Source: a virus
Lineage: Duplodnaviria; Heunggongvirae; Uroviricota; Caudoviricetes
Virus record (IMG/VR): IMGVR_UViG_3300042868_008486
Span: 44,810 to 108,809 of that record
Length of the DNA: 64,000 bases
Direction: 5' to 3' (one strand)
Part shown: piece after piece, positions 4,478 to 45,639 of the stretch
Position numbering within the stretch: the stretch's first letter is position 1
How the letters are laid out: the number at the start of each line of letters is the position of its first letter
The notes under the pieces: model-generated
Told to the model about the DNA's origin: nothing
What the model saw: only the letters and a program-made list of their open reading frames with translations
Databases searched by the model: none
Program-made: the position numbers and the translations under genes

Positions 4478-5410
4478 TTAATAATCTGATATTTGATACG
4501 CTCTGAGTGGTTTGACATCATCTAAACCATAAACCTCACTAAGCCATACCTTTAATAGTGATTGGATTTCATCCCAATCATAACCTAAAACTTCACCAAA
4601 AAACGCCCATACTCTATCATTATCAATATTAACAATATGTCTACCATCATCGTTATAATACGCAAATAATGGTTTACCATTTTCATCACGATAAAACAAA
4701 ACCTCACCTTTCTTAACCGGATTTAAATTATTAAATTGGTTAAGGAATGATAATGGATTATCTTGATATGCTCGTTTGATTATATCTAAATTACCACCGA
4801 ACAATTTAATAGCGTTTTCATATCCCAAGTCTTCGACTGCGTGTCTTACCTTCTTATTTAATGGGTTATCACTTTCTTCTTTTAATACATTTTTGATTGT
4901 ATCTCTTAAAGATTCCCCTTCACGTATCATACCATCCCACAAACCTGTTTTATCAAGTAATCCAAAGGCTTCTTCATCACTAATCACATCTTCATAACCT
5001 GGCCAATTATATGGTCTACCATTGAATGATTTGATAAATAGATTTTGGTGTGATGGGATTTCCAAATCAATATCGTATATTTCAAATCCGTGGTCATCGG
5101 CAACCGCACCAATCCATTGTTTTAATAGATATATCTCTTCACCTGATAGATTTTTAAAATCAACAATCATATCAACAATTATCTCAACAAATTCTTCATC
5201 CATAATATCATAATCCAATATATTAAAATAAAAAAATGCGTCAGGAAAACGTCTTTGTGAAACACTACAACTACCTTTTAAATTGCCAAGATGATGACCT
5301 AATTCAGGGTTATCATCAACCACTTGTTTAAATTTGTAGAAACCACCCAACATTTTAATTGCTTGAGATAGTCCAAACTTTTCAATTAAGTTATTAATTT
5401 TCTCAACCAT
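4478..5410 (-). CDS. Two-module paralog-family protein (G..aIK..GG module twice; ends WLSEVYGL)
   Basis: 310 aa; FGLSQAIKMLGG and LGYENAIKLFGG; internal VLKEE; C-terminal domain similar to 12712, 13137, 24529, 25400. Confidence 0.7.
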   Translation of the reverse strand: MVEKINNLIEKFGLSQAIKMLGGFYKFKQVVDDNPELGHHLGNLKGSCSVSQRRFPDAFFYFNILDYDIMDEEFVEIIVDMIVDFKNLSGEEIYLLKQWIGAVADDHGFEIYDIDLEIPSHQNLFIKSFNGRPYNWPGYEDVISDEEAFGLLDKTGLWDGMIREGESLRDTIKNVLKEESDNPLNKKVRHAVEDLGYENAIKLFGGNLDIIKRAYQDNPLSFLNQFNNLNPVKKGEVLFYRDENGKPLFAYYNDDGRHIVNIDNDRVWAFFGEVLGYDWDEIQSLLKVWLSEVYGLDDVKPLRAYQISDY

Positions 5411-8941: not shown

Positions 8942-9989
8942 ATGGAAAATTTTGACAAAATAAGAGAAGTCGTAATCAAATGTATCAAACGAAAATACGA
9001 CAATAGTAAAATAACCTTCACCAATGATAATAACATATATCAACTTGATATTCGAATTTTTAGTAATTCCCCAACAAAACAATTAGAATGTGTTTGTGAT
9101 GTTGAAGAGATATTAAAATTATGTCACATTAAAGAAGATATTAAAATTAGAGTTAATGACCGTAATCGGTTATTTATTCATATTGACGTAATAAGTGAAA
9201 ATTTAGTAAAATTTAGGAAAAAATTGGATTTACCAACACCAGTAATTACGGCAATACAGAATAGTTCTTATGGAATACATTGTAATACTGACCCAATATG
9301 ATAGATAATATTTTCAGAAAATTCTTTTGGAGTATAGACGCAATTGAATTACGTTCACAAGATAGAGTTATGACCGTTTACGGTAGACAAGTAGGGTATT
9401 TAACTCTAGGTATCGCACCTAAAAATAAATTAGTTCCTGACGAACTAAAAAGTTATAATGGTGTTGTTGATACCGTCAAAATAATTATTCGTGACCACGC
9501 CAACATTAATCAAGCCCCACTAAGAGAATGGGGTAAAATGTGTTGTATTAAAGAATGTGATTTTGACCATTACATTAAACAAGTTTATATTGAAACATTA
9601 CAACGTAAACGACGAGAAGAATTAATTAAGCCACATAAATTCATTTGGTGATGAAAGATATTGATATTAGATTATTGATTAAAAAAACAATATGTAAAAT
9701 GGAGTCCCCATTCTCTTCGGTTAATGTGAAGATTTCAAAATTAATGTACTTAGATAGTGAAGTTTCACAACTATCTTTCAGTGCATCAACATATTATCTT
9801 GTAACACAAAATAAAAATATTTATGAAATTGAAGTCATATACCACCCCCGTTCATTTCTGTCATCAACATTTGAACAAAGAAATAAATACGAGAATAGAG
9901 CAACCAATTCAATACAATTAATGTTAGGTGGGTTATTAAAAGTCGAACCTGAAGATATCAAACTCAAGTTCATTATTGGGGGATGTTAA
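8942..9989 (+). other. Three overlapping plus-strand hypothetical genes (8942-9301, 9298-9651, 9645-9989)
   Basis: Start/stop overlaps indicate a small operon. Confidence 0.55.
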
Positions 9990-11487: not shown

Positions 11488-12702
11488 TTATTTTACCGTA
11501 TCAATACTATTAATTTCCCAATCAATCTCATTGAACATTCGTTTTAATTTATATTCATATGTTCGATTAAACCAATCAACGATTAAATCAGGATTATTAC
11601 CAAAGACTTCAAATAATTTAGAGTATCTTGGTTCCAAATATAATCTCCTATCATCTGAACCATAATCATTATCAAAAAACCCAATTAACTTAGAATTAAG
11701 ATTAAATCTGTCTTTATCTATAACATAGATGTTAACACCATCTTCTGATGGGCTCATTACAAATTTAACATTCTCAGGTAATAACTGAGGGGCAACGTGT
11801 TTGATGTATTTATCAATCGTATTATCTTTTTTAGATTCGGTATTCTCATTAATAGATTTACCCTCATCTTCACTAAACTCTTCCGCATCAACAAGTATTT
11901 GAATTTTATTATGGTCAATTCTATCAAAAAAACTACCGGTGATTGGGATTGAGTTGTTTGTTATCTTATTCCACTTATCAACAATATCCATAGTTAAATG
12001 ACTACGATAATTGGGTTGCCAAGTGGCATAACCACCAGCATCACTCTCCGTATAATGAACTATAACTAATGGAATATCTTTAAATCTTGAGGGATGTAAA
12101 TAGGGGTCTTTTTTTCTTGTTACCTCCAAATGTGAAATATTGGGATATTCTTTATATAACCATTTCTTAAATAATTCAACCCTTTTATCAATTGGAATTG
12201 AAACCCCCTCATTAATTACTTCATCATCATCAACAAACTCTTCAGTATCAATAACAATTTTTGCATTATATCCACTAAATTTCCATCTAGGTATGACAGG
12301 TATTTGACCACCTGTAACTTTATTCCATTCGTCACTTATTTCACCCGCTAACCAAGAGTCGTGATTAACCGCATCACTATCGGTTGTATAATAAATTTTA
12401 ATTAACGGATGACCGTCATATGTTGAGGTTTCCAAAAACGAAATCTCGTCAAAATTATTATGTAACCATTTTTTAAATAAGTTAACACTTTTTTCGGTTG
12501 AAATCTCTTCTTTCAACAATCTAAATCTCAATAACGGTTTACCGTTAATTGTTATATCACCCTTGTCATTCTTACCAATGGTTTTAACAACAACCTTCTT
12601 ATTCTTAAATTTCCCACCCATTAATGTATCCCCAACTTTAATGTCGAGTTTAATCATTTCATTAATGGATTTATATTGTTCTTCAGTTATTATTATTTTC
12701 AT
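11488..12702 (-). CDS. MKIIITE-leader multi-module (polyprotein-like) protein
   Basis: 404 aa; modules bounded by SINE, LLKEE, VINE, SINE; internal duplicated domain (VNLFKKWL / VELFKKWL). Confidence 0.7.
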   Translation of the reverse strand: MKIIITEEQYKSINEMIKLDIKVGDTLMGGKFKNKKVVVKTIGKNDKGDITINGKPLLRFRLLKEEISTEKSVNLFKKWLHNNFDEISFLETSTYDGHPLIKIYYTTDSDAVNHDSWLAGEISDEWNKVTGGQIPVIPRWKFSGYNAKIVIDTEEFVDDDEVINEGVSIPIDKRVELFKKWLYKEYPNISHLEVTRKKDPYLHPSRFKDIPLVIVHYTESDAGGYATWQPNYRSHLTMDIVDKWNKITNNSIPITGSFFDRIDHNKIQILVDAEEFSEDEGKSINENTESKKDNTIDKYIKHVAPQLLPENVKFVMSPSEDGVNIYVIDKDRFNLNSKLIGFFDNDYGSDDRRLYLEPRYSKLFEVFGNNPDLIVDWFNRTYEYKLKRMFNEIDWEINSIDTVK

Positions 12703-12799
12703 AGTATCATTTTAAATTTTAGTCCTCATCCAACTGAACAAATTTGCGAAATTAGATTTTACTGTTTTGATTCCCCTTAAATTATAAACCTCACCCAAC
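12699..12799 (-). CRISPR. CRISPR-like mini-array (repeat-spacer-partial repeat) at the 3' end of the 12712 gene
   Basis: Minus strand GTTGGGTGAGGTTTATAATTTAAGGGGAATCAAAAC (36 nt, 12764-12799), 29-nt spacer (12735-12763), then GTTGGATGAGGACTAAAATTTAA (19/23 identical to the first copy). Confidence 0.5.
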
Positions 12800-13140
12800 C
12801 ACTTCTCTGTAACTTTTTGAATAACAAGGTTGGTCAAATCAAAATATTCATCCAAAACCCACCAAATATCAGAACTAATGTAAACTTCATCATTTCGTCT
12901 GTTGTAAACCATTAAGTTATAACCTTTTTTATAACGAAATAACGTCCAATCACCATCTGTTTCAGATTGAACAACTTCCAAATCATCAAACAGGTGTAAG
13001 AACTCCATAAAAGTATCAATATTCAATACTTTACAAAAAGTATCAAACCCACCCATTAAGTCAATAACCTGTTTAACCCCATTGGTTTTAATCAACTCTT
13101 TAAGTCTCTCAACTTTATTTTCGGTTATTATTATTTTCAT
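12712..13140 (-). CDS. MKIIITE-leader paralog-family protein ending in WLGEVYNLRGIKT
   Basis: GVKQVIDLMGG module + ~85-aa domain (LFRYKKG...VYIS..IW). Confidence 0.75.
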   Translation of the reverse strand: MKIIITENKVERLKELIKTNGVKQVIDLMGGFDTFCKVLNIDTFMEFLHLFDDLEVVQSETDGDWTLFRYKKGYNLMVYNRRNDEVYISSDIWWVLDEYFDLTNLVIQKVTEKWLGEVYNLRGIKTVKSNFANLFSWMRTKI

Positions 13141-13883
13141 ATCATTTTAATATAACTAGGACCCAGTAAAGGTTCTGTTCTCTTTAAGTTTAAGTGGAAA
13201 ACATCTTCAGCCCACTCCTTAGTGTATTCAATAATACTGTAGTATTCAATACCAAGTTTACCATTTAAAAAATCCCAAATTTCTTTTTCACTTATGTAAA
13301 GACACTTTAGGAATTTATCGTAAATCATCACATTATTACCTTCCTGATATCTAAATAAAATGTAATCATTTTTATCTTTTGATTGAACTGCCTCTAAATC
13401 ATCAAATAGATGTAAAAAGTCCATCGGACCACTAAGATTAAATATTTTACAAAATTTATCCCAACCACCCATTAATTTAATTGTGGTATTAGGTCCTTCA
13501 CGATTAAGTATATATTTAAGTTTATCAACTTTATTTTCAGTAATAATACCGTCTTCAAGTTTACCATTAATTAATATTGGGACAATCCAAGGTTTTCCTG
13601 TGTAGTATAATTTTTCACGTAAATATTGTGCAAATCCTTGAACATCATCTTCATCAAAGTAAGCGTCTGCATAAACATCAATATAAACACTTAATGATGG
13701 TTTATGTTTGATATTTATCACTTTAACTTTATCTATATGGCTAAACAATGTTAGATACCAATTACTAGCACTAATCTCTTCATTACGATAACGTTCCTTT
13801 AGTACGGATAATTCTTCATCAATCAATCGTTGGAATAACCCAAAAACCTTTTTATTTACTTCCTCGTTAATTAATATCTTCAT
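13137..13883 (-). CDS. Fused two-module leader protein; C-terminal half paralogous to 12712
   Basis: MKILINE; internal IITENKVDKLK; FLHLFDDLE shared with 12712. Confidence 0.75.
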   Translation of the reverse strand: MKILINEEVNKKVFGLFQRLIDEELSVLKERYRNEEISASNWYLTLFSHIDKVKVINIKHKPSLSVYIDVYADAYFDEDDVQGFAQYLREKLYYTGKPWIVPILINGKLEDGIITENKVDKLKYILNREGPNTTIKLMGGWDKFCKIFNLSGPMDFLHLFDDLEAVQSKDKNDYILFRYQEGNNVMIYDKFLKCLYISEKEIWDFLNGKLGIEYYSIIEYTKEWAEDVFHLNLKRTEPLLGPSYIKMI

Positions 13884-14373
13884 TGATATAACTGTTTAAT
13901 TTATATTTCTCTATAATTTGTTTGAATATCTGAGTTCTACCTCGTTTACCAATTGTATTTCTTTTTGATATAAATGAATATCCAAATCCTGAGTCACCAC
14001 AAGTACCAAGAACTCTCCTATACTCTTGACCACTATGTCCATTAAATGGTGTAGACGCGTATGCAGTGAACTTATAATTCATACCACCACTAGTCCATTT
14101 AAAATCACCAAGTTTCTTTTCTTTCTTATTCCAACTATCTTCTAAATTAAGTGACTCAATTAATAAATTGTCGATATACATATTCTCACCTGTCGAATCG
14201 AATTTATATGGGACAAAACCTGTTGATTTATAAAATTCCTTTAAATCATCGTTAAATGCTACTTTCAACAAAGTTTTAATACCACCAACCAATTTAACCA
14301 CCTCATTAACACCTTTAGTATTAATTAACTCACGTAATTTTTCACCGGCTGATTCTTTAATCAAAATTCTCAT
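13867..14373 (-). CDS. MRILIKE-leader protein with GG module (start corrected to 14373)
   Basis: TATTTAT-N4-ATG; GVNEVVKLVGG. Confidence 0.65.
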   Translation of the reverse strand: MRILIKESAGEKLRELINTKGVNEVVKLVGGIKTLLKVAFNDDLKEFYKSTGFVPYKFDSTGENMYIDNLLIESLNLEDSWNKKEKKLGDFKWTSGGMNYKFTAYASTPFNGHSGQEYRRVLGTCGDSGFGYSFISKRNTIGKRGRTQIFKQIIEKYKLNSYINEDIN

Positions 14374-14409
14374 ACCAATAAATATAATAGAAAACAAAAA
14401 ACCCCCAAC

Positions 14410-15312
14410 TTAAAGAAGGGGGGTTTTAGTTAACATTAAACATATCACAGGACAACTATACTCTTTAATACCGGTACTACTGTGATTATATGTGTAAGTC
14501 ACATTTTGGGGGTCCTCAAATGAAATCCCCCTCACTTTTTCTTCAATACCTTCCAAATCATAAGAACCATCAACATCAATGATGAAAAACCTTGGAACAT
14601 TCGAAAATCTTGACTCATCACCTAATTCCATCAAATACTTGGAAACAATATGTGGCTCAGATAACGCAACATCCCTCCAAGATTCCCCATAATAATCCAT
14701 AAATTGATTAGTAACACTTCGAGAAACTTTTTGGTCAAACCCAATTCCGTGAATATAATAATCAATACCACCTCTATGTGAAAATGTTGGAATGATATCT
14801 TCGTCAGCATTAAAAATTAAATACTCCAAATAATCATTACGTAATGTATTGAAGATTTTTAGATATGAGAATTTCTCAATATCCTTTTGCATCTTCTTCA
14901 AACTACCATCAAAATTAGTTTCATCGTAAGCGGAGGGGTAAACAATGGTCTTAACCGCATATGAATCGAACTGAGCGGAAACAAATGGCCACTTATAATC
15001 AACGTAACCCAATTTAAAATACTCGGACTTATAATGATTGAACAATTTAATGGCATTCATACCATTCCTATATTTTTCAGTCGTTCTAAACATTTCACGT
15101 AAAATAACTCTCGCCTCATTGTAATTCCAATGTTCAACAATGAAATCGGTAACGTCAATTAATTTTGTATCAACAACCACATCACCTTTACGATTGACTT
15201 TAACAGGAACGTTCCAAACGTCCTTCATTATTTTTAAAAATAAATGTTGGGTATCCTTTGAGCCAAGAATTAATCCAACTTGTTCTTTTGTGATTCCGTC
15301 CTTAATATTCAT
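14410..15312 (-). CDS. Possible PD-(D/E)xK restriction-endonuclease-like protein
   Basis: GGIDYYIHGIGFDQKVS resembles a D...D-x-K catalytic core; TATATTTG promoter ~15317. Confidence 0.4.
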   Translation of the reverse strand: MNIKDGITKEQVGLILGSKDTQHLFLKIMKDVWNVPVKVNRKGDVVVDTKLIDVTDFIVEHWNYNEARVILREMFRTTEKYRNGMNAIKLFNHYKSEYFKLGYVDYKWPFVSAQFDSYAVKTIVYPSAYDETNFDGSLKKMQKDIEKFSYLKIFNTLRNDYLEYLIFNADEDIIPTFSHRGGIDYYIHGIGFDQKVSRSVTNQFMDYYGESWRDVALSEPHIVSKYLMELGDESRFSNVPRFFIIDVDGSYDLEGIEEKVRGISFEDPQNVTYTYNHSSTGIKEYSCPVICLMLTKTPLL

Positions 15313-15379
15313 AATTCAAATATAAGAAAAATAAATCGCATAAAAAAACCCCACGGATGAGGTGGGGTAATAAAAATTG

Positions 15380-15883
15380 TTAGGCCGTTTGTTGTTTTAA
15401 TGTTTTACAAGCCGTAATATTAAACCCTTTTCCAAATTTCTGAGATAGTTTCCATATCGTATCCCAAGACACTGTGGCCTCACCACTCAAATCTTCATAT
15501 AATGGTTTACCAAATTTTTTATTATATGCGTTTAACACTGAACCCATTTGTTGTTGTGTTTTAATCTCACTAAACACTTTATTTAAATCACCTGAAGTTC
15601 CAATACCTTTAATCGAATTATTTAATCTTAGTATCCAAGACTGAATTGTTTTATCCGCAGGATTTGGTTGACCTGACACTCCTCGTAATTTACTAAATAA
15701 CTCTAAGACTAATTCTGAAGTTTTTTTGGTTTGTTGACATATAGTTTGAGGTGAGGAGTCAACCGCGTCATAACCGGTATCGGGCATTGATTCAAGACCC
15801 CCAAGAGAAAACGCCTGTTCTTTTATAACTCTCTTGACTATTCTAACTAAATCTGATTCAGATAATCTTATTACTTTTTTCAT
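15380..15883 (-). CDS. MKKVIRLSESDLVRIVKRVIKE-leader protein
   Basis: Leader near-identical in DNA and protein to 19797 gene. Confidence 0.7.
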   Translation of the reverse strand: MKKVIRLSESDLVRIVKRVIKEQAFSLGGLESMPDTGYDAVDSSPQTICQQTKKTSELVLELFSKLRGVSGQPNPADKTIQSWILRLNNSIKGIGTSGDLNKVFSEIKTQQQMGSVLNAYNKKFGKPLYEDLSGEATVSWDTIWKLSQKFGKGFNITACKTLKQQTA

Positions 15884-15895
15884 AATAATTTTTAA

Positions 15896-16303
15896 TTAAA
15901 ATTCATCCTCTTCCTCAGAGTCATATCCATTTAATTTGTCTTCACAAAACTCAATAATATCTTTTAAATAATCAATAGCTTCATCATCAGACATTTCCAT
16001 TAGTTCATCTTCAATATCTTGATGAATACTTGGTAGGTCATACATTCTGTAATCACTATCATCTTCCTCCAATTCATTTTCTTCAGAACCCAAAACTTCC
16101 TCATCGTTAACTAATGAGTCAAAATCATCCTCATCTATTTCACTAAACGATTCTAATTGTTCACTAACCAATGGTTTAGCATTACCCAATTTATTTTCTA
16201 CCAAGGCTTTAAACCTTTCAGTCTGTACTTGCAAACTACCGGTATGTTGTGAACGAATACTATTTCTTTCTTCTTCACTCATTTCATTTAAAATGTGTTT
16301 CAT
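15896..16303 (-). CDS. MKHILNE-leader highly acidic protein
   Basis: MKHILNEMSEEERNSIRSQH; D/E-rich; TATTTAT upstream. Confidence 0.7.
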   Translation of the reverse strand: MKHILNEMSEEERNSIRSQHTGSLQVQTERFKALVENKLGNAKPLVSEQLESFSEIDEDDFDSLVNDEEVLGSEENELEEDDSDYRMYDLPSIHQDIEDELMEMSDDEAIDYLKDIIEFCEDKLNGYDSEEEDEF

Positions 16304-16351
16304 AATATCTTTTTTAATATAAATAGTTACTAGACATAAAAAAACTCAACA

Positions 16352-17680
16352 TTATTTAGAGAGTTCAATCAAATCGGACTCTTTAAACTTATATGTTTTA
16401 CCAACAGTCCCAATTGGGGAATTATTGAAAACATAAACATCCGAACCTTTAATGAATGCCATTCTATCAATAGGTTTATTACTGTAATTAACCGCATTTG
16501 AGAACCCAATATTTGCTGAATAAATACCATCTTTTAATTCAATATTGGATAATGGTTTAATTTGATACGTTACACCATCAATTGTGGCATCAATACCATC
16601 AATTATGTCTTTTTTTGTGCCAAAACCTGAGATTTTAATATCAGAACCCGGATGAAATTGGTCCCTTATTTTTTCAGCATCAAGTTTTTCTTGTCTAAAA
16701 TTGTTAACTATTGATTTAAGTTGGATGTCAAGAAGTTGTTTCATATCATCACTATCAACATCCCTGAATAAATCGGCCATCCAATTAATCATTGACGACT
16801 CAATATTACCCTCATCATATGTAAATTTGTTATCTTTGATGTCTCTAGCCAAAAATAACTTCATTCTTTCGTGAATTGGTAGTTTAGTGTTAAAGAAATT
16901 GACAATTGACCAACCCCTCTTATCAAATGGAATAGGTTTTACACCGACAACACCCGCAACATACTCATTAGTCGATGGTGTCCAATAATCTTTAAAGGCA
17001 ATCTCAAGGGCTTTCTTAATATTTGTTGACTTAATGTAAGACTCAAACTTCACAATATCGGGGAAATATGGAAATACTTTAGAATCAAACACATTTTTCC
17101 ATATATAAATTTTCTTATTCTTAGTTAAAAAGATATCTTTAGACGATAATTCGAAGGTTTCATTAGTAATTGTGTTATGTAATAGTACTTTACAACCCGG
17201 TGTCTCTTTAATTTCATTAAAAACACGTTCAAGTTCAGATGGAGTGTCAGCAATACCATTAATGTATACTAATTCATATTGAAATCCAAAATTAGTGTAA
17301 TCAATTTCAATTACACATTCATCAATTGGTTCATCAGGAACCAAATCCAACTCCTGTTCATTCAAACTATCTTGTAATATCACCTCATTTGTGAATATCT
17401 TTAAATGGGGGAAACTTTTTCTAAGTCTATATTGTATTTCACTTGTTAAAAAATCAAAATCAAAGGTATCATCATAACCATAAATGTCAATCCAAACTTT
17501 AATTCCATCATTATATGTCATATGATTAATCTCAACACCATCAATTGATGCTATTGCGTCCTGTGCATCCCAAGAAAACCCCTCACTATTAGATAGTATA
17601 TCCTCAACTTGAACATTAATTAAATATTCAAGGATTTCTTTCAGTTTAGTTTCCTTACTCTCAGTAATTATTACTTTCAT
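16352..17680 (-). CDS. MKVIITE-leader multi-module protein with C-terminal PD-(D/E)xK nuclease-like domain
   Basis: KDIIDGIDATIDGVTYQIKP; internal SLNE boundary; TATTTAT-N4-ATG. Confidence 0.55.
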   Translation of the reverse strand: MKVIITESKETKLKEILEYLINVQVEDILSNSEGFSWDAQDAIASIDGVEINHMTYNDGIKVWIDIYGYDDTFDFDFLTSEIQYRLRKSFPHLKIFTNEVILQDSLNEQELDLVPDEPIDECVIEIDYTNFGFQYELVYINGIADTPSELERVFNEIKETPGCKVLLHNTITNETFELSSKDIFLTKNKKIYIWKNVFDSKVFPYFPDIVKFESYIKSTNIKKALEIAFKDYWTPSTNEYVAGVVGVKPIPFDKRGWSIVNFFNTKLPIHERMKLFLARDIKDNKFTYDEGNIESSMINWMADLFRDVDSDDMKQLLDIQLKSIVNNFRQEKLDAEKIRDQFHPGSDIKISGFGTKKDIIDGIDATIDGVTYQIKPLSNIELKDGIYSANIGFSNAVNYSNKPIDRMAFIKGSDVYVFNNSPIGTVGKTYKFKESDLIELSK

Positions 17681-18454: not shown

Positions 18455-19285
18455 TTAGTTTTTCACTTGAATACTCTTCTTAAAGGTTAACGTAATATAT
18501 GTATCATCATTACCGTATAAGTATAATTTACCAAATAAATCATAACCTAAAAATTTACTTCTCATTCTCAAAGGTCCGGCAACATCTAACTCAGCATTAA
18601 CTGATTGATTTGGTGTCCGTCCGTCACCGTTTTTATTTAAATCCTCAACTTTAATAAATACTTGAAAAGGACCTGTAGATTGTTTAGGTTGTAATGTCAT
18701 AGGTACTTTTAAATCTGAAGTAACTAAATCAGTATCACCATTGAATACTTTAATAGTGATTGGGGTTGTTGAGTTATTAGTAAAACCTTCAAATTTAAAT
18801 GGTACTAACGTACCAACAGTTGTTGTTGTTGGTTTTTCCGATTTTGTTAAATCAAGATTTCTATTACCTACCAACTCTTCAACCTTACCTTCGCCAACTT
18901 GAGGTTTACCATCAGCACCAACTGTACCAACTTGAGGTTTACCATCAGCACCAACTGTACCAACTTGAGGTTTACCATCAGCACCAACTGTACCAACTTG
19001 AGGTTTACCATCAGCACCAACTTGAGGGTTATTTACAGGTGCTTTTCCACCCGGAAATTGAGTCTCCAATTTTTGAATGGTGGTGGGGTATTTTGATATA
19101 TCTAAAATCTTACCTGATTTATTCTTTGCAACCCACTTATTATTCTGTTTCTGATATGTATAATTTTTATCACCAGGAACTGTTAACCAAGTATTATCAA
19201 CAACCTGTTCTTTTAACAACCTTCTTTCTTCAAGTAATCTATTTGATTCCTGAATATGTCGTATCTTACTATAACTTCGATTCAT
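18455..19285 (-). CDS. MNRSYSKIRHIQE-leader protein with tandem 11-aa repeats
   Basis: PQVGTVGADGK repeats; WLTVPGDKNYTYQK...W domain shared with C-terminus of 39344. Confidence 0.7.
   Translation of the reverse strand: MNRSYSKIRHIQESNRLLEERRLLKEQVVDNTWLTVPGDKNYTYQKQNNKWVAKNKSGKILDISKYPTTIQKLETQFPGGKAPVNNPQVGADGKPQVGTVGADGKPQVGTVGADGKPQVGTVGADGKPQVGEGKVEELVGNRNLDLTKSEKPTTTTVGTLVPFKFEGFTNNSTTPITIKVFNGDTDLVTSDLKVPMTLQPKQSTGPFQVFIKVEDLNKNGDGRTPNQSVNAELDVAGPLRMRSKFLGYDLFGKLYLYGNDDTYITLTFKKSIQVKN
18894..19027. repeat. Perfect 33-bp tandem repeat (3 full copies plus partials), coding
   Basis: ccaacttgaggtttaccatcagcaccaactgta at 18894, 18927, 18960; partials at 18993 and 19017. Confidence 0.95.
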
Positions 19286-19796: not shown

Positions 19797-20201
19797 TTAA
19801 TCAATCTCTTTTCTTGATTTCTTATTTAATACATTGTCTATGTGGTCACTTAACCTTTGACAAATAGGGGTTAAATCTTCAATATCTTCCTCATTATCAC
19901 CAACAATAAAAAATGCAGATTCAATGTATGATTTTAAATATACACTCCACTCTTCTTTTTCTTCTTGTGTTAAATCGTCTGCCACATCGTAAGTCAACTG
20001 AAGTATTGGGATTTGAAGTTGTTGTTTAGCTCTTTCAAGACGAGTTTGCACTTTAGGTTTCTCACCACTAAAAAAAGAACTACCCCCAAGAAAATAATCT
20101 CCATTATTAAATTGAACAACATCTAAATCATCTGACTCATTAATAACCCTTTTAACAATTCTAACTAAATCAGATTCTGTTAGTCTTATAACTTTTTTCA
20201 T
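19797..20201 (-). CDS. MKKVIRLTESDLVRIVKRVINE-leader protein
   Basis: Leader as 15380 gene; upstream DNA near-identical to that of 19405 gene. Confidence 0.7.
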   Translation of the reverse strand: MKKVIRLTESDLVRIVKRVINESDDLDVVQFNNGDYFLGGSSFFSGEKPKVQTRLERAKQQLQIPILQLTYDVADDLTQEEKEEWSVYLKSYIESAFFIVGDNEEDIEDLTPICQRLSDHIDNVLNKKSRKEID

Positions 20202-32429: not shown

Positions 32430-32990
32430 AGATTTACCCTCGTTTAATTTAATGTATCTTCCACCTCATCTTCGCAGTCATCTAATAGGGACCACGTTGA
32501 ATCTACCTTAATATTTAAGGTCTCTTCCACCGAAAACGGTTGAATTTTATTTGAATGGTTTGTTGAGAGTACCTTACAATTTAGGGTGTCTTCCACCACA
32601 CCACGATTCTCATTTTCATCAAAATAAGTTGAATCTACCTTAATATTTAGGGTCTCTTCCACATTTAAGTGTTGTGATAACCCAAAATCAACTGATTCTA
32701 CCTTACAATTTAGGGTGTCTTCCACCACCTCTACCAATCGTTGACCATAATTCTTTGTTGTGAGTACCTTACAATTTAGGGTGTCTTCCACCTTTGAAAT
32801 AAGAATTAATTCATTCGGATTAGTTGAGAGTACCTTACAATTTAGGGTGTCTTGCACCAGCTTGCGTTGTGAAGACAATCGTTCCGGTGTTGAGAGTACC
32901 TTACAATTTAGGGTGTCTTGCACCGCGGTATTTTCATCTAAGTTGTGTAATTCAGTTCTACCTACCTTAGCATTTAGTTTATTTTCCACC
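32430..32990 (-). CRISPR. CRISPR-like array embedded in frame in a CDS: 8 full 36-nt repeats + terminal partial repeat, 8 unique spacers (7 x 30 nt, 1 x 27 nt)
   Basis: + strand repeats at 32496, 32562, 32628, 32691, 32757, 32823, 32889, 32955 (degenerate), partial ending 32465; consensus GTTGAGAGTACCTTACAATTTAGGGTGTCTTCCACC (minus: GGTGGAAGACACCCTAAATTGTAAGGTACTCTCAAC); internal hairpin; spacers unrelated to each other; no cas gene in window. Confidence 0.65.
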
Positions 32991-33235
32991 CATTCAGAGA
33001 TTAATTCCTGAAAGACCTCACTAGACATAGAAAATAACGTCATATAAGATTTGAAGAAATCATATCTCCACCACAGGTAATTGGTTTCAACTTTATATTC
33101 TAAGTACCAATATTTTTCTTCTCGGTTAACAAACCAAATACCTTTTGTGTTTGGGTTATAAATAATCTCACATTTATTGAGTTCTGTCTCAATCTGTTTA
33201 ATAAACCCTTGTTTAAATTTCTCAGGATAATTCAT
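32444..33235 (-). CDS. ~85-aa family domain followed by translated repeat-spacer units (VEDTLNCKVLST + 10 variable aa)
   Basis: 263 aa, no internal stop; N-terminal domain ends ISEWVENKLNAKV like the 12712/13137/4478 family. Confidence 0.75.
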   Translation of the reverse strand: MNYPEKFKQGFIKQIETELNKCEIIYNPNTKGIWFVNREEKYWYLEYKVETNYLWWRYDFFKSYMTLFSMSSEVFQELISEWVENKLNAKVGRTELHNLDENTAVQDTLNCKVLSTPERLSSQRKLVQDTLNCKVLSTNPNELILISKVEDTLNCKVLTTKNYGQRLVEVVEDTLNCKVESVDFGLSQHLNVEETLNIKVDSTYFDENENRGVVEDTLNCKVLSTNHSNKIQPFSVEETLNIKVDSTWSLLDDCEDEVEDTLN

Positions 33236-44700: not shown

Positions 44701-45639
44701 TGGTGACGGCATACCACTGTAATGACACCATAAATCATCATCCAAATTTTCTTCTTTCATTTTATATCTTTAAAAAATTGTTGAACAATATAATCAGGTG
44801 CGGGTAAAATATCAAGACGGTGAGCAATCTCAGTTAAACCAAATTCTTCATCACTCATTAATTCCTTTCTTAAATTAGTCGCATCAACTATTGTTGGTTC
44901 TTCCCAATATCCAACAAAGTGTAAGATATCCATCATTTCACCTTCTTGAGTTGGGTCAATAACCATCAACCCATATTTAATATCTTTTATATTATGTTCT
45001 TTACTCATCTTTATTTAACTTTTCCAATAGATTATTCATAGTGTCCATAATAGTTTCACCAACAGAATAAGGACACGGACTAACATTTTCTTCTAACCAT
45101 TCTTCAAGTCGGTATGAAACCTCTTCATTATTTACCTCTTGTACAAAACTAGCATCTTCCTCAGCCATAAATGCAACATAACCCTTAAACCTTAAATTAA
45201 TTAATGTTAGTGGATAGATATCTTCCCACGTTTTATAAACTCGTTTACTCATCTTTGTTTTGTTTTTAATAATCTACTCCAAATTTTTATTACCATATCT
45301 CTTTTAGGTGATGGTTTTAAAGTTTTCCATCTATCAATCCAATGTTGTATTTCTTCTTTACTCATAATATTAATTTAACGTCATTGTTCCTTGGAATTCG
45401 TGACTTGTTTTTAACTTAACCTCAGCCAATGTTTCAAATTCTGATATTTTACTTTCTTTAATACCAATAACCACATCAACCATATTACCACTATTTTGTT
45501 TTCTATCGTACTTCTCAAGACCCAAATGGTCAATAGTATTTATTTGACCCTTAACCATAAAGAGAGCGTATAAAAACTTACTCATCTTTTTATCACTGAC
45601 AGGTATTTTAACATACCTATAAACTAATTCTTCATTCAT
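41755..45639 (-). other. Block of ~14 small hypothetical genes
   Basis: Packed ORFs with ATGA overlaps; includes unlisted 38-aa ORF 45249-45365. Confidence 0.6.
43876..44250 (-). CDS. HNH endonuclease (start corrected to 44250)
   Basis: CAYCG...MQIDHIKPL...NLNPSCVRCNKWK. Confidence 0.9.
   Translation of the reverse strand: MKINREEVWLKCDKKCAYCGTEITMKQMQIDHIKPLYRNDKDETLVVWGVERGTDDMDNLNPSCVRCNKWKSTFSLGMFREVVQNSINRLERDTPNFRLAKDYGLLNVTENKVIFYFEKHFNDE

Follow-up and report, generated by a model that had tools for sequence, protein, structure and literature searches.

A repeat-insert array with CRISPR geometry at the coding end of a gene in lake phages

The array at the end of gene 12712..13140(-)

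The DNA analyzed in this study, referred to here as the window, is a stretch of 64,000 nucleotides (nt) from IMG/VR virus record IMGVR_UViG_3300042868_008486 (positions 44,810 to 108,809), a record of 186,832 nt that is estimated to be 64% complete. The window is AT-rich, and nearly all of its genes lie on the minus strand. One of these genes, 12712..13140(-), is an open reading frame (ORF) of 142 amino acids (aa), and within its last structured element begins a small array that has the geometry of a CRISPR array. An earlier note, made from the sequence alone, had described a 36-nt unit, a 29-nt insert, and a second copy of about 23 nt at the end of this gene, and this description was borne out.

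The first repeat (copy 1, 12799..12764(-)) is complete at 36 nt and starts at codon position 3; it codes for the last base of W114 to T126 (WLGEVYNLRGIKT), that is, (W)LGEVYNLRGIK(T). It is followed by a single insert, or "spacer," of 29 nt (12763..12735(-)), which is translated as VKSNFANLF(S), and then by a truncated terminal repeat of 23 nt (copy 2, 12734..12712(-)). Of the 23 positions of copy 2, 19 are identical in copy 1; beyond them, the agreement drops to 4 of 13. From start to start, the two copies lie 65 nt apart; copy 2 therefore begins at codon position 2 and is out of frame with copy 1. It yields SWMRTKI and then the stop codon of the gene (12714..12712), which is located inside copy 2 and 9 nt from the start codon of the next gene (12702). 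The 142-aa product ends ...TEKWLGEVYNLRGIKTVKSNFANLFSWMRTKI, and no repeat is visible at the protein level. At the position of the 29-nt insert, orthologs of about 70% identity carry unrelated sequence.

The frequency of such pairs by chance was estimated with 100 Markov and 100 codon-block shuffles of the 64 kb. Pairs that agree at 19 or more of 23 positions are expected 0.32 to 0.38 times per 64 kb at distances of 40 to 100 nt and 0.00 to 0.04 times at distances of 64 to 67 nt. The window contains three isolated pairs of such strength (at 12712, 23274, and 60927), and since two of them lie elsewhere, the pair at 12712 is by itself only suggestive. A repeat profile, R1, was built from 62 repeat variants from other contigs and copy 1 (63 sequences in total); copy 2 was left out of the training set. 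When 81 kb were searched on both strands without filtering, the second-best match of R1 was 12712-12734(-), at 18.1 bits (E value, 2.1e-4) and over model positions 1 to 23; copy 1 scored 37.1 bits but was itself in the training set. It is this independent match, together with the gene family described below, that is decisive for copy 2, beyond the pair alone.

An AlphaFold2 model of the protein, made from a 39-row alignment, has a mean predicted local distance difference test (pLDDT) score of 84.5 and comprises four helices, a four-stranded sheet, and two helices. In this model, helix 104-119 ends in the segment encoded by the first repeat, which also provides strand 125-128 (block pLDDT, 96 and 88), and the insert-encoded tail is disordered (residues 131 to 142; pLDDT, about 40 to 45; block means, 45 and 39). 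The first repeat is thus real coding sequence and, in the model, a structured part of the protein. Alignment of 39 homologs showed that the motif WLGEVYNLRGITT is nearly invariant and that the 10 or so residues that follow it are unrelated; the sequence after the first repeat is not constrained as protein in this family. As a measure of synonymous-site conservation, the same-codon fractions in the first repeat (0.6 to 1.0) fell within the wide range seen elsewhere. A Foldseek search of the model against the PDB returned no fold match at an E value of ≤0.001, and searches of ten neighboring proteins against Pfam and PHROGs assigned no family to the array genes.

Recurrence of the array in a phage gene family

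We refer to the 142-aa gene and its relatives as family a. The protein has 458 database homologs at an E value of ≤0.01, and in the alignment of 39 of them the endings fall into three classes: a further in-frame LGEVYNL.. unit (up to four units), an ending in ..SWVRSTI-stop, and an ending in ..VG-stop or ..LG-stop. These peptide classes correspond to one DNA copy in three reading frames. Conservation of the further copies is at the DNA level, not at the protein level. Among the best 120 of the 458 homologs, a strict pattern placed 15 in frame, 19 in frame -1 (the ..SWVRSTI class), and 27 in frame +1 (the ..VG or ..LG class), so that at least 61 end in a recognizable second copy. The others have different tails (43, many of them eroded-looking), end within 6 residues (11), or lack the first motif (5). 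A tblastn search of cultured phages with the 142-aa gene gave no match.

At the DNA level, 48 loci coding for relatives and 74 viral contigs with the repeat pattern were compiled, and genuine arrays were seen in them. The 74 contigs hold 94 clusters of at least two repeats, 93 of which begin within 40 nt of the end of a hidden Markov model (HMM) match to the N-terminal domain; the single exceptional cluster starts 78 nt from the end of its contig and is cut by it. Family a arrays begin inside the last 12 codons of the gene. After the removal of identical copies, 65 distinct arrays from related metagenome contigs remained, with 2 repeats in 28 arrays, 3 in 22, 4 in 6, 5 in 1, 6 in 7, and 8 in 1, that is, with one to seven inserts. 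The inserts range from 28 to 33 nt (mostly 29 to 32 nt), and the start-to-start spacings of 59 to 69 nt are spread over the three classes modulo 3 (50/45/41). Repeats within one array are identical or differ at few positions. The terminal repeat keeps its first 23 nt (≥19 of 23) in 58 of the 65 arrays and has lost the last 13 (≤6 of 13) in 50 of them. When the inserts were compared with each other, the median best match was 11 letters, and 5 of 7750 pairs reached 22 or more.

The proposal of the earlier note that repeat-spacer tails recur in this gene family, and are not a one-off duplication, is strongly supported by these counts. Homologs, once collected, were enriched for such tails, and the stretch between the copies proved to be hypervariable (125 of 136 inserts are unique) and not conserved as protein. 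Family a does not behave as a protein-coding tandem repeat, which should have a period that is a multiple of 3 and an ORF that stays open through the units: the period in the window is 65 nt, and the ORF stops within repeat 2 in 40 of the 65 arrays. It does have the geometry of a viral mini-array, with 36, 29, and 23 (of 36) nt in the window and the insert lengths given above in its relatives.

Gene and array also occur together in several copies. In G001, a relative that is 100% complete at 296,330 nt, there are 17 repeat matches. Head-to-tail series of as many as three modules, each made up of gene plus array, were seen at several other loci (L008:1836-2360; L066, L071, L110, and L131). In these tandem modules, the next family gene has its start codon within about 10 to 20 nt of the stump that precedes it. 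An RNA run (X20) yielded a 185-nt contig in which a repeat-like piece and 59 other letters precede the start of a family gene; it represents a related module, and since DNA may have been carried over into this run, the contig says nothing about expression.

Within the family, the array of the window is an eroded, inactive, one-spacer fossil that has stopped turning over, as judged from its one insert, its stump at 19 of 23 positions, and its identical sequence in contigs from two other lake runs. The stump is as eroded as this, or worse, in 16 of the 65 arrays. The contigs of other lake runs accumulate loose ends at 12660-12710.

Elsewhere, arrays with partly shared contents give some indication of how they grow. 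Only four array pairs share part of their inserts; three of these have distal inserts in common but different inserts next to the gene, and one pair differs distally. This polarity, as far as so few cases go, fits addition next to the gene. A second imprint is found in the stop codons: when the 125 unique inserts are read in the frame of the repeat before them, 31 are interrupted by a stop, compared with 58 and 54 in the other two frames (112/250; P = 1.9e-4), and the same holds for currently untranslated inserts (15/58 in the repeat frame versus 52/116 in the others; P = 0.02). There was no codon-position composition bias in the inserts (chi-square P = 0.12). The simplest reading is that every insert once lay directly behind an in-frame first repeat and that read-through was then mildly favored. 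What was favored may have been the peptide or termination near the start of the next gene; the data fit either.

A sister family (family b) behaves differently. In the window, it is represented by 32444..33235(-), which carries one degenerate and seven good 36-nt units in frame. The earlier note had compared this large array with the array at 12712, and the likeness that it saw in unit length, codon phase, and truncated last unit was confirmed: all seven units start at codon position 3 of the ORF, as copy 1 does in its own, and the ORF ends in a partial unit that reads VEDTLN and then a stop. In both families, moreover, the array starts inside the W..N..T motif of the gene. In family b, the inserts of the window array and of seven related loci (L177 to L183) are always 30 nt long (one of 27 nt), and the ORF remains open across as many as 16 units (L177, 440 aa). 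Within an array, the repeats diverge as coding sequence does; both array ends are conserved, the middle is variable, and one unit is duplicated. Family b thus behaves as a protein-coding tandem repeat, with an in-frame period and an open ORF. Family b is strictly in frame with diverging repeats, whereas family a is frame-blind with uniform repeats; family b is translated. As for the claim that the two genes are paralogous, a relationship is plausible but weakly supported: in a profile-profile comparison, the probability was 30.5% and the E value was 5e-4 over 36 columns, with the W..N..T motif in register.

Host repeats, Cas genes, and the source of the inserts

Several observations bear on the carriers of these arrays. 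G001 encodes a T4-like portal and tail sheath, and its proteins carry SprB repeats and a type-9-secretion sorting domain, which points to a Bacteroidota host. A phage-like contig of 1.8 kb with the same gene and array sits inside a Flavobacterium metagenome bin, and the window stretch is present in about 19 lake-water DNA runs from 2020 to 2024. The carriers are uncultured large lake phages that probably infect Flavobacterium or other Bacteroidota.

Genuine type VI-B loci were sought in the presumed host genus by running a two-unit pattern over 401 Flavobacterium genomes. True arrays were found in two (the L164 and L167 loci), and the array at L164 flanks an ORF of 1137 aa, which the Cas13b model of PADLOC matches at 673 bits. 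The repeats of these Flavobacterium Cas13b loci are 36 nt long with 30-nt spacers, start with GTTG, end with CAAC, and have a clear hairpin core. The phage units share the geometry of 36 plus about 30 nt, the GTTG start, and a CA(A/C)C end with them; by direct reading, agreement is limited to the four-letter ends. At L164:4757-4803 and 9172-9218, both arrays that flank cas13b have one degenerate unit of which the last 20 or so letters are kept, after a gap of 118 nt; these units retain the opposite end of the repeat from that retained in the phage stumps.

The earlier note had suggested that the arrays might be matched to host Cas13b repeat types, and this suggestion was not upheld. R1 gave no match at an E value of ≤10 on the Cas13b repeats of L164 or L167, two host repeat types, and over 151 Flavobacterium genomes it found only the phage-like 1.8-kb contig and one marginal single site, with no array. 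An exact scan for the repeat skeleton in one genome from each of 185,579 species returned seven single matches and no array, the sole true match being the 1.8-kb contig. The RNA of family a repeats folds no better than shuffled sequences (z scores of +1.75, +0.49, and -0.45), and the unit of the large array forms a modest hairpin on the plus strand. An Rfam search of three array loci and the large array gave only noise and no family, and a search of G000 and G001 for anti-repeats similar to trans-activating CRISPR RNA (tracrRNA) gave nothing above the shuffle maxima except the opposite strand of the arrays themselves.

No Cas1 or Cas13b was found in five phage records, three of which are 96 to 100% complete. 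The Cas13b model (PDLC02153) matched none of the five records, and the control genomes gave no match with it either, although it scores 673 bits on L164. G000 has no ORF of more than 788 aa. Cas models run against 137 ORFs of at least 230 aa from G001, with three ORFs that cross stretch borders left out, identified no Cas protein; one sub-threshold-looking DEDDh match fell on the DNA polymerase.

A source for the inserts was sought as well. A comparison of 135 inserts with G000, G001, and all loci outside the arrays gave no matches. The insert of the window has no exact copy in the viral contig collection and none elsewhere in G000; exact scans with the inserts of L076 and L100 found just their own arrays, and a scan of metagenome contigs with insert 7 of L086 found only its own array. 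The L086 array had no match in cultured phages, and none of the 23 spacers of the two Flavobacterium Cas13b loci matches G000 or G001. Two candidates were rejected as probable chance similarities: a partial match (20/31) of L134 insert 3 to G001 at 19913, beyond which the sequences diverge completely, and scattered AT-rich matches of the window mini-array among 301 Flavobacterium genomes, of which the best (E value, 2.4e-5 per genome) is intergenic and needs a gap.

One insert gave a different result. Insert 7 of the seven-insert array L086 (L086:1638-1668), compared with the same 301 genomes, matches at 25 of 31 letters in three of the four places examined and at 24 in the fourth; the same 28-letter match, at 89% identity, occurs in about 15 Flavobacterium genomes and is antisense to a conserved KGPNVM-type motif, which we take to be that of an AMP-binding enzyme. 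This insert may be a gene fragment captured from an unsampled genome, which is a hint only.

The neighborhood of the mini-array contains further relatives. The upstream gene, 13137..13883(-), is a tandem paralogue in which residues 113 to 231 are 44.5% identical to the 142-aa protein; the equivalent W..T motif is present, and no second copy was recognizable. The downstream gene, 11488..12702(-), starts with MKIIITE.., as the family does. Over 11488-17680 on the minus strand, a series of otherwise different genes have the beginning MK(I/V)(I/L)I(T/N)E.. in common, with conserved DNA on either side of the start codon; this looks like a common gene-start module, perhaps a recombination or translation-initiation element. 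A 310-aa ORF at 4478-5410 on the minus strand contains two weak copies of the family a domain (BLASTP E values, 1e-6 and 1e-3), with no recognizable array. The window also has a perfect 33-nt tandem repeat at 18894-19022 (3.9 copies, 100% identical) within ORF 18455..19285(-), and G001 has at least six ORFs that resemble DNA methyltransferases (L138:4348-6943, L150:11168-12355, and others), three of which are tandem cytosine-methylase-like genes.

Origin and significance of the arrays

Our reading, which we hold to be probable with some reserve, is that the feature at 12712 is a genuine, though eroded, array with one spacer, and that it belongs to a family of arrays of CRISPR geometry made by CRISPR-type insertion at the end of a coding gene. 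Pieces of about 30 nt would be inserted singly beside the first repeat, with the 36-nt unit duplicated each time, as a Cas1-Cas2-like integration reaction would do. The 23-nt stump would be the oldest copy, inherited with the module, and the array would be carried along as the gene duplicates. The integrase would act in trans; most simply, it would be a host adaptation complex working on a gene end whose length and terminal letters are like those of the 36-nt repeats in Bacteroidota. In the window, the ORF runs through the insert as a predicted disordered tail and halts inside the stump. The data show the anatomy of the arrays, their recurrence, their independence of reading frame, their polarity (in a few cases), and the lack of Cas genes; the integrase and its source, as well as any present function of the arrays, are what we infer from them.

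To our knowledge, CRISPR-type integration with repeat duplication is the only process that produces uniform repeats with unrelated, length-controlled inserts added at one end; therefore, and because a precedent exists in Flavobacterium columnare, integration in trans is favored. In that species, the type II-C complex acts in trans to fill a Cas13b array that has no Cas1 of its own, although the similarity between the two repeat types lies largely at one end; DNA of the host is captured too (PMC8092290).

Several points weigh against this reading. The 65 arrays do not represent independent events, since the metagenome contigs that carry them are related, and the polarity is based on just four informative pairs, one of which differs distally. 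No integrase was identified, nor was any host genome with a matching repeat among those searched. Exact scans and searches of G000, G001, and the loci yielded no protospacer for any insert, and the inserts of G000 and G001 never match their own genome, although such matches might be expected if pieces were captured while the phage itself was infecting. Finally, the depletion of stop codons shows that translation matters; a role at the protein level would account for this at least as well as a passive by-product would, and perhaps better.

A rather unlikely alternative gives the tail exactly such a role. The module would be a peptide-writing cassette in which each insertion supplies a new C-terminal peptide and pushes the older tails downstream, where they are no longer translated, with family b keeping all of them in frame. 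The rarity of stops in the repeat frame across all inserts would be expected of such a cassette, as would the family b features (inserts of 30 nt, one of 27, an ORF open to 16 units, and coding-like divergence of the repeats) and the location of the first repeat in a structured part of the fold. The frame-blind spacing of family a, however, leaves most later units untranslated; the inserts show no codon-position bias, and the tail that they encode is predicted to be disordered. Moreover, the depletion is partial (25% versus 45%) and may just as well stem from coupling of translation with the next gene, which starts after the stump.

It is distinctly unlikely that the tail is an array of guide or decoy RNAs, transcribed and cut into pieces similar to CRISPR RNA (crRNA) that load host Cas13b and either attack competing phages or swamp the host's own guides. 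The geometry and terminal letters shared with Flavobacterium Cas13b arrays suggest such a use, as does the occurrence of arrays without Cas genes in many copies per genome, as in G001; viral mini-arrays and repeat decoys are known (PMC11656645 and PMC7162821). The repeats themselves argue otherwise: R1 misses the Cas13b repeats of two Flavobacterium genomes and finds no array in 151, no array with the skeleton occurs among the 185,579 species representatives, the repeat RNA folds no better than shuffles and belongs to no Rfam family, and the inserts match no related phage. In addition, a Cas13b guide consists of a spacer followed by the whole downstream repeat; a 23-nt stump would therefore leave the last insert of every array, and thus every one-insert array such as that in the window, without a guide.

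Recombination within the phage, by which the repeats would shuffle units among paralogous arrays without any CRISPR-type integrase and apparent novelty would reflect the sampling of a large cassette pool, is very unlikely. The modules are tandem and multicopy, family b arrays have conserved ends with a variable middle and a duplicated unit, and one family a pair differs distally, all of which could be products of recombination; however, recombination moves units and does not create 125 unrelated, length-controlled inserts, which share so little among themselves, and the near identity of family a repeats within arrays is that expected after recent duplication. It is hardly credible that the two copies are similar by chance or stem from one local duplication with a deletion of 1 nt: the pair is only 19/23 in AT-rich DNA, with two isolated pairs of equal strength in the window, but R1 finds copy 2 independently at the exact site and with the truncation point of the family, and the architecture recurs among homologs.

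Insertion of the CRISPR type, as we favor it, has partial parallels in known systems. The virus-borne, cas-less mini-arrays described in PMC11656645 and, for huge phages, in PMC7162821 are likewise compact repeat-spacer arrays with few units; there, the repeats are host-like and the spacers mostly hit related viruses, neither of which was found here, and in the present arrays, unlike those, the first repeat codes for conserved protein and every array is fused to a gene copy. Type VI-B arrays of Flavobacterium, as portrayed in PMC8092290 and as seen at L164, resemble the phage arrays in their 36-nt repeats, inserts of about 30 nt, GTTG and CA(A/C)C ends, lack of their own adaptation genes, and, as far as the few phage cases go, polarized growth. 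The phage arrays differ in having no cas13b nearby or in the genome, an unrelated repeat core, no stable hairpin, a coding gene as the "leader," and a 23-nt terminal repeat. RNA anti-CRISPRs and solitary repeat units are also phage-borne and repeat-like without cas genes, and according to PMC11656645 they mimic the host repeat; such mimicry was tested for and not found here.

In the literature searched, we found no description of arrays that begin inside a phage gene. Off-target ("neo-CRISPR") integration, which Nivala, Shipman, and Church reportedly observed in 2018 as rare laboratory events at non-CRISPR sites in Escherichia coli, would turn any sequence as long as a repeat into a repeat-insert-repeat unit, and this is the origin proposed here. 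In contrast to those events, the product here is conserved, multicopy, and evolving, and it characterizes a family of phage genes.

An array of CRISPR geometry is taken to be a noncoding guide RNA locus that goes with cas genes or with a host system whose repeat is identical. In the present arrays, by contrast, the first repeat encodes a conserved and structured portion of a protein, there are no cas genes and no match to a host repeat, and the arrays of the family are still turning over. CRISPR finders and gene callers would each misdescribe these loci, which is of concern to annotators. It is possible, although we advance it only tentatively and with more doubt than confidence, that these lake phages possess a cas-less DNA capture system with phage-specific repeats that takes foreign or unknown DNA of about 30 nt into the coding 3' end of a multicopy gene. 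Each capture would rewrite the C-terminal peptide, with family b retaining all captures in frame and family a displacing the older ones downstream, or would instead absorb the spacer integration activity of the host.

If host integrases fill the arrays, CRISPR adaptation would have these phages as its substrates and perhaps as its exploiters or sinks; if a phage enzyme fills them, it would represent a new spacer capture machinery. The occurrence of frame-blind family a beside in-frame family b can be viewed as a natural experiment on captured DNA as RNA or as peptide. If the capture reading is true, CRISPR-type adaptation would act on, and possibly for, a phage protein gene rather than a guide RNA locus.

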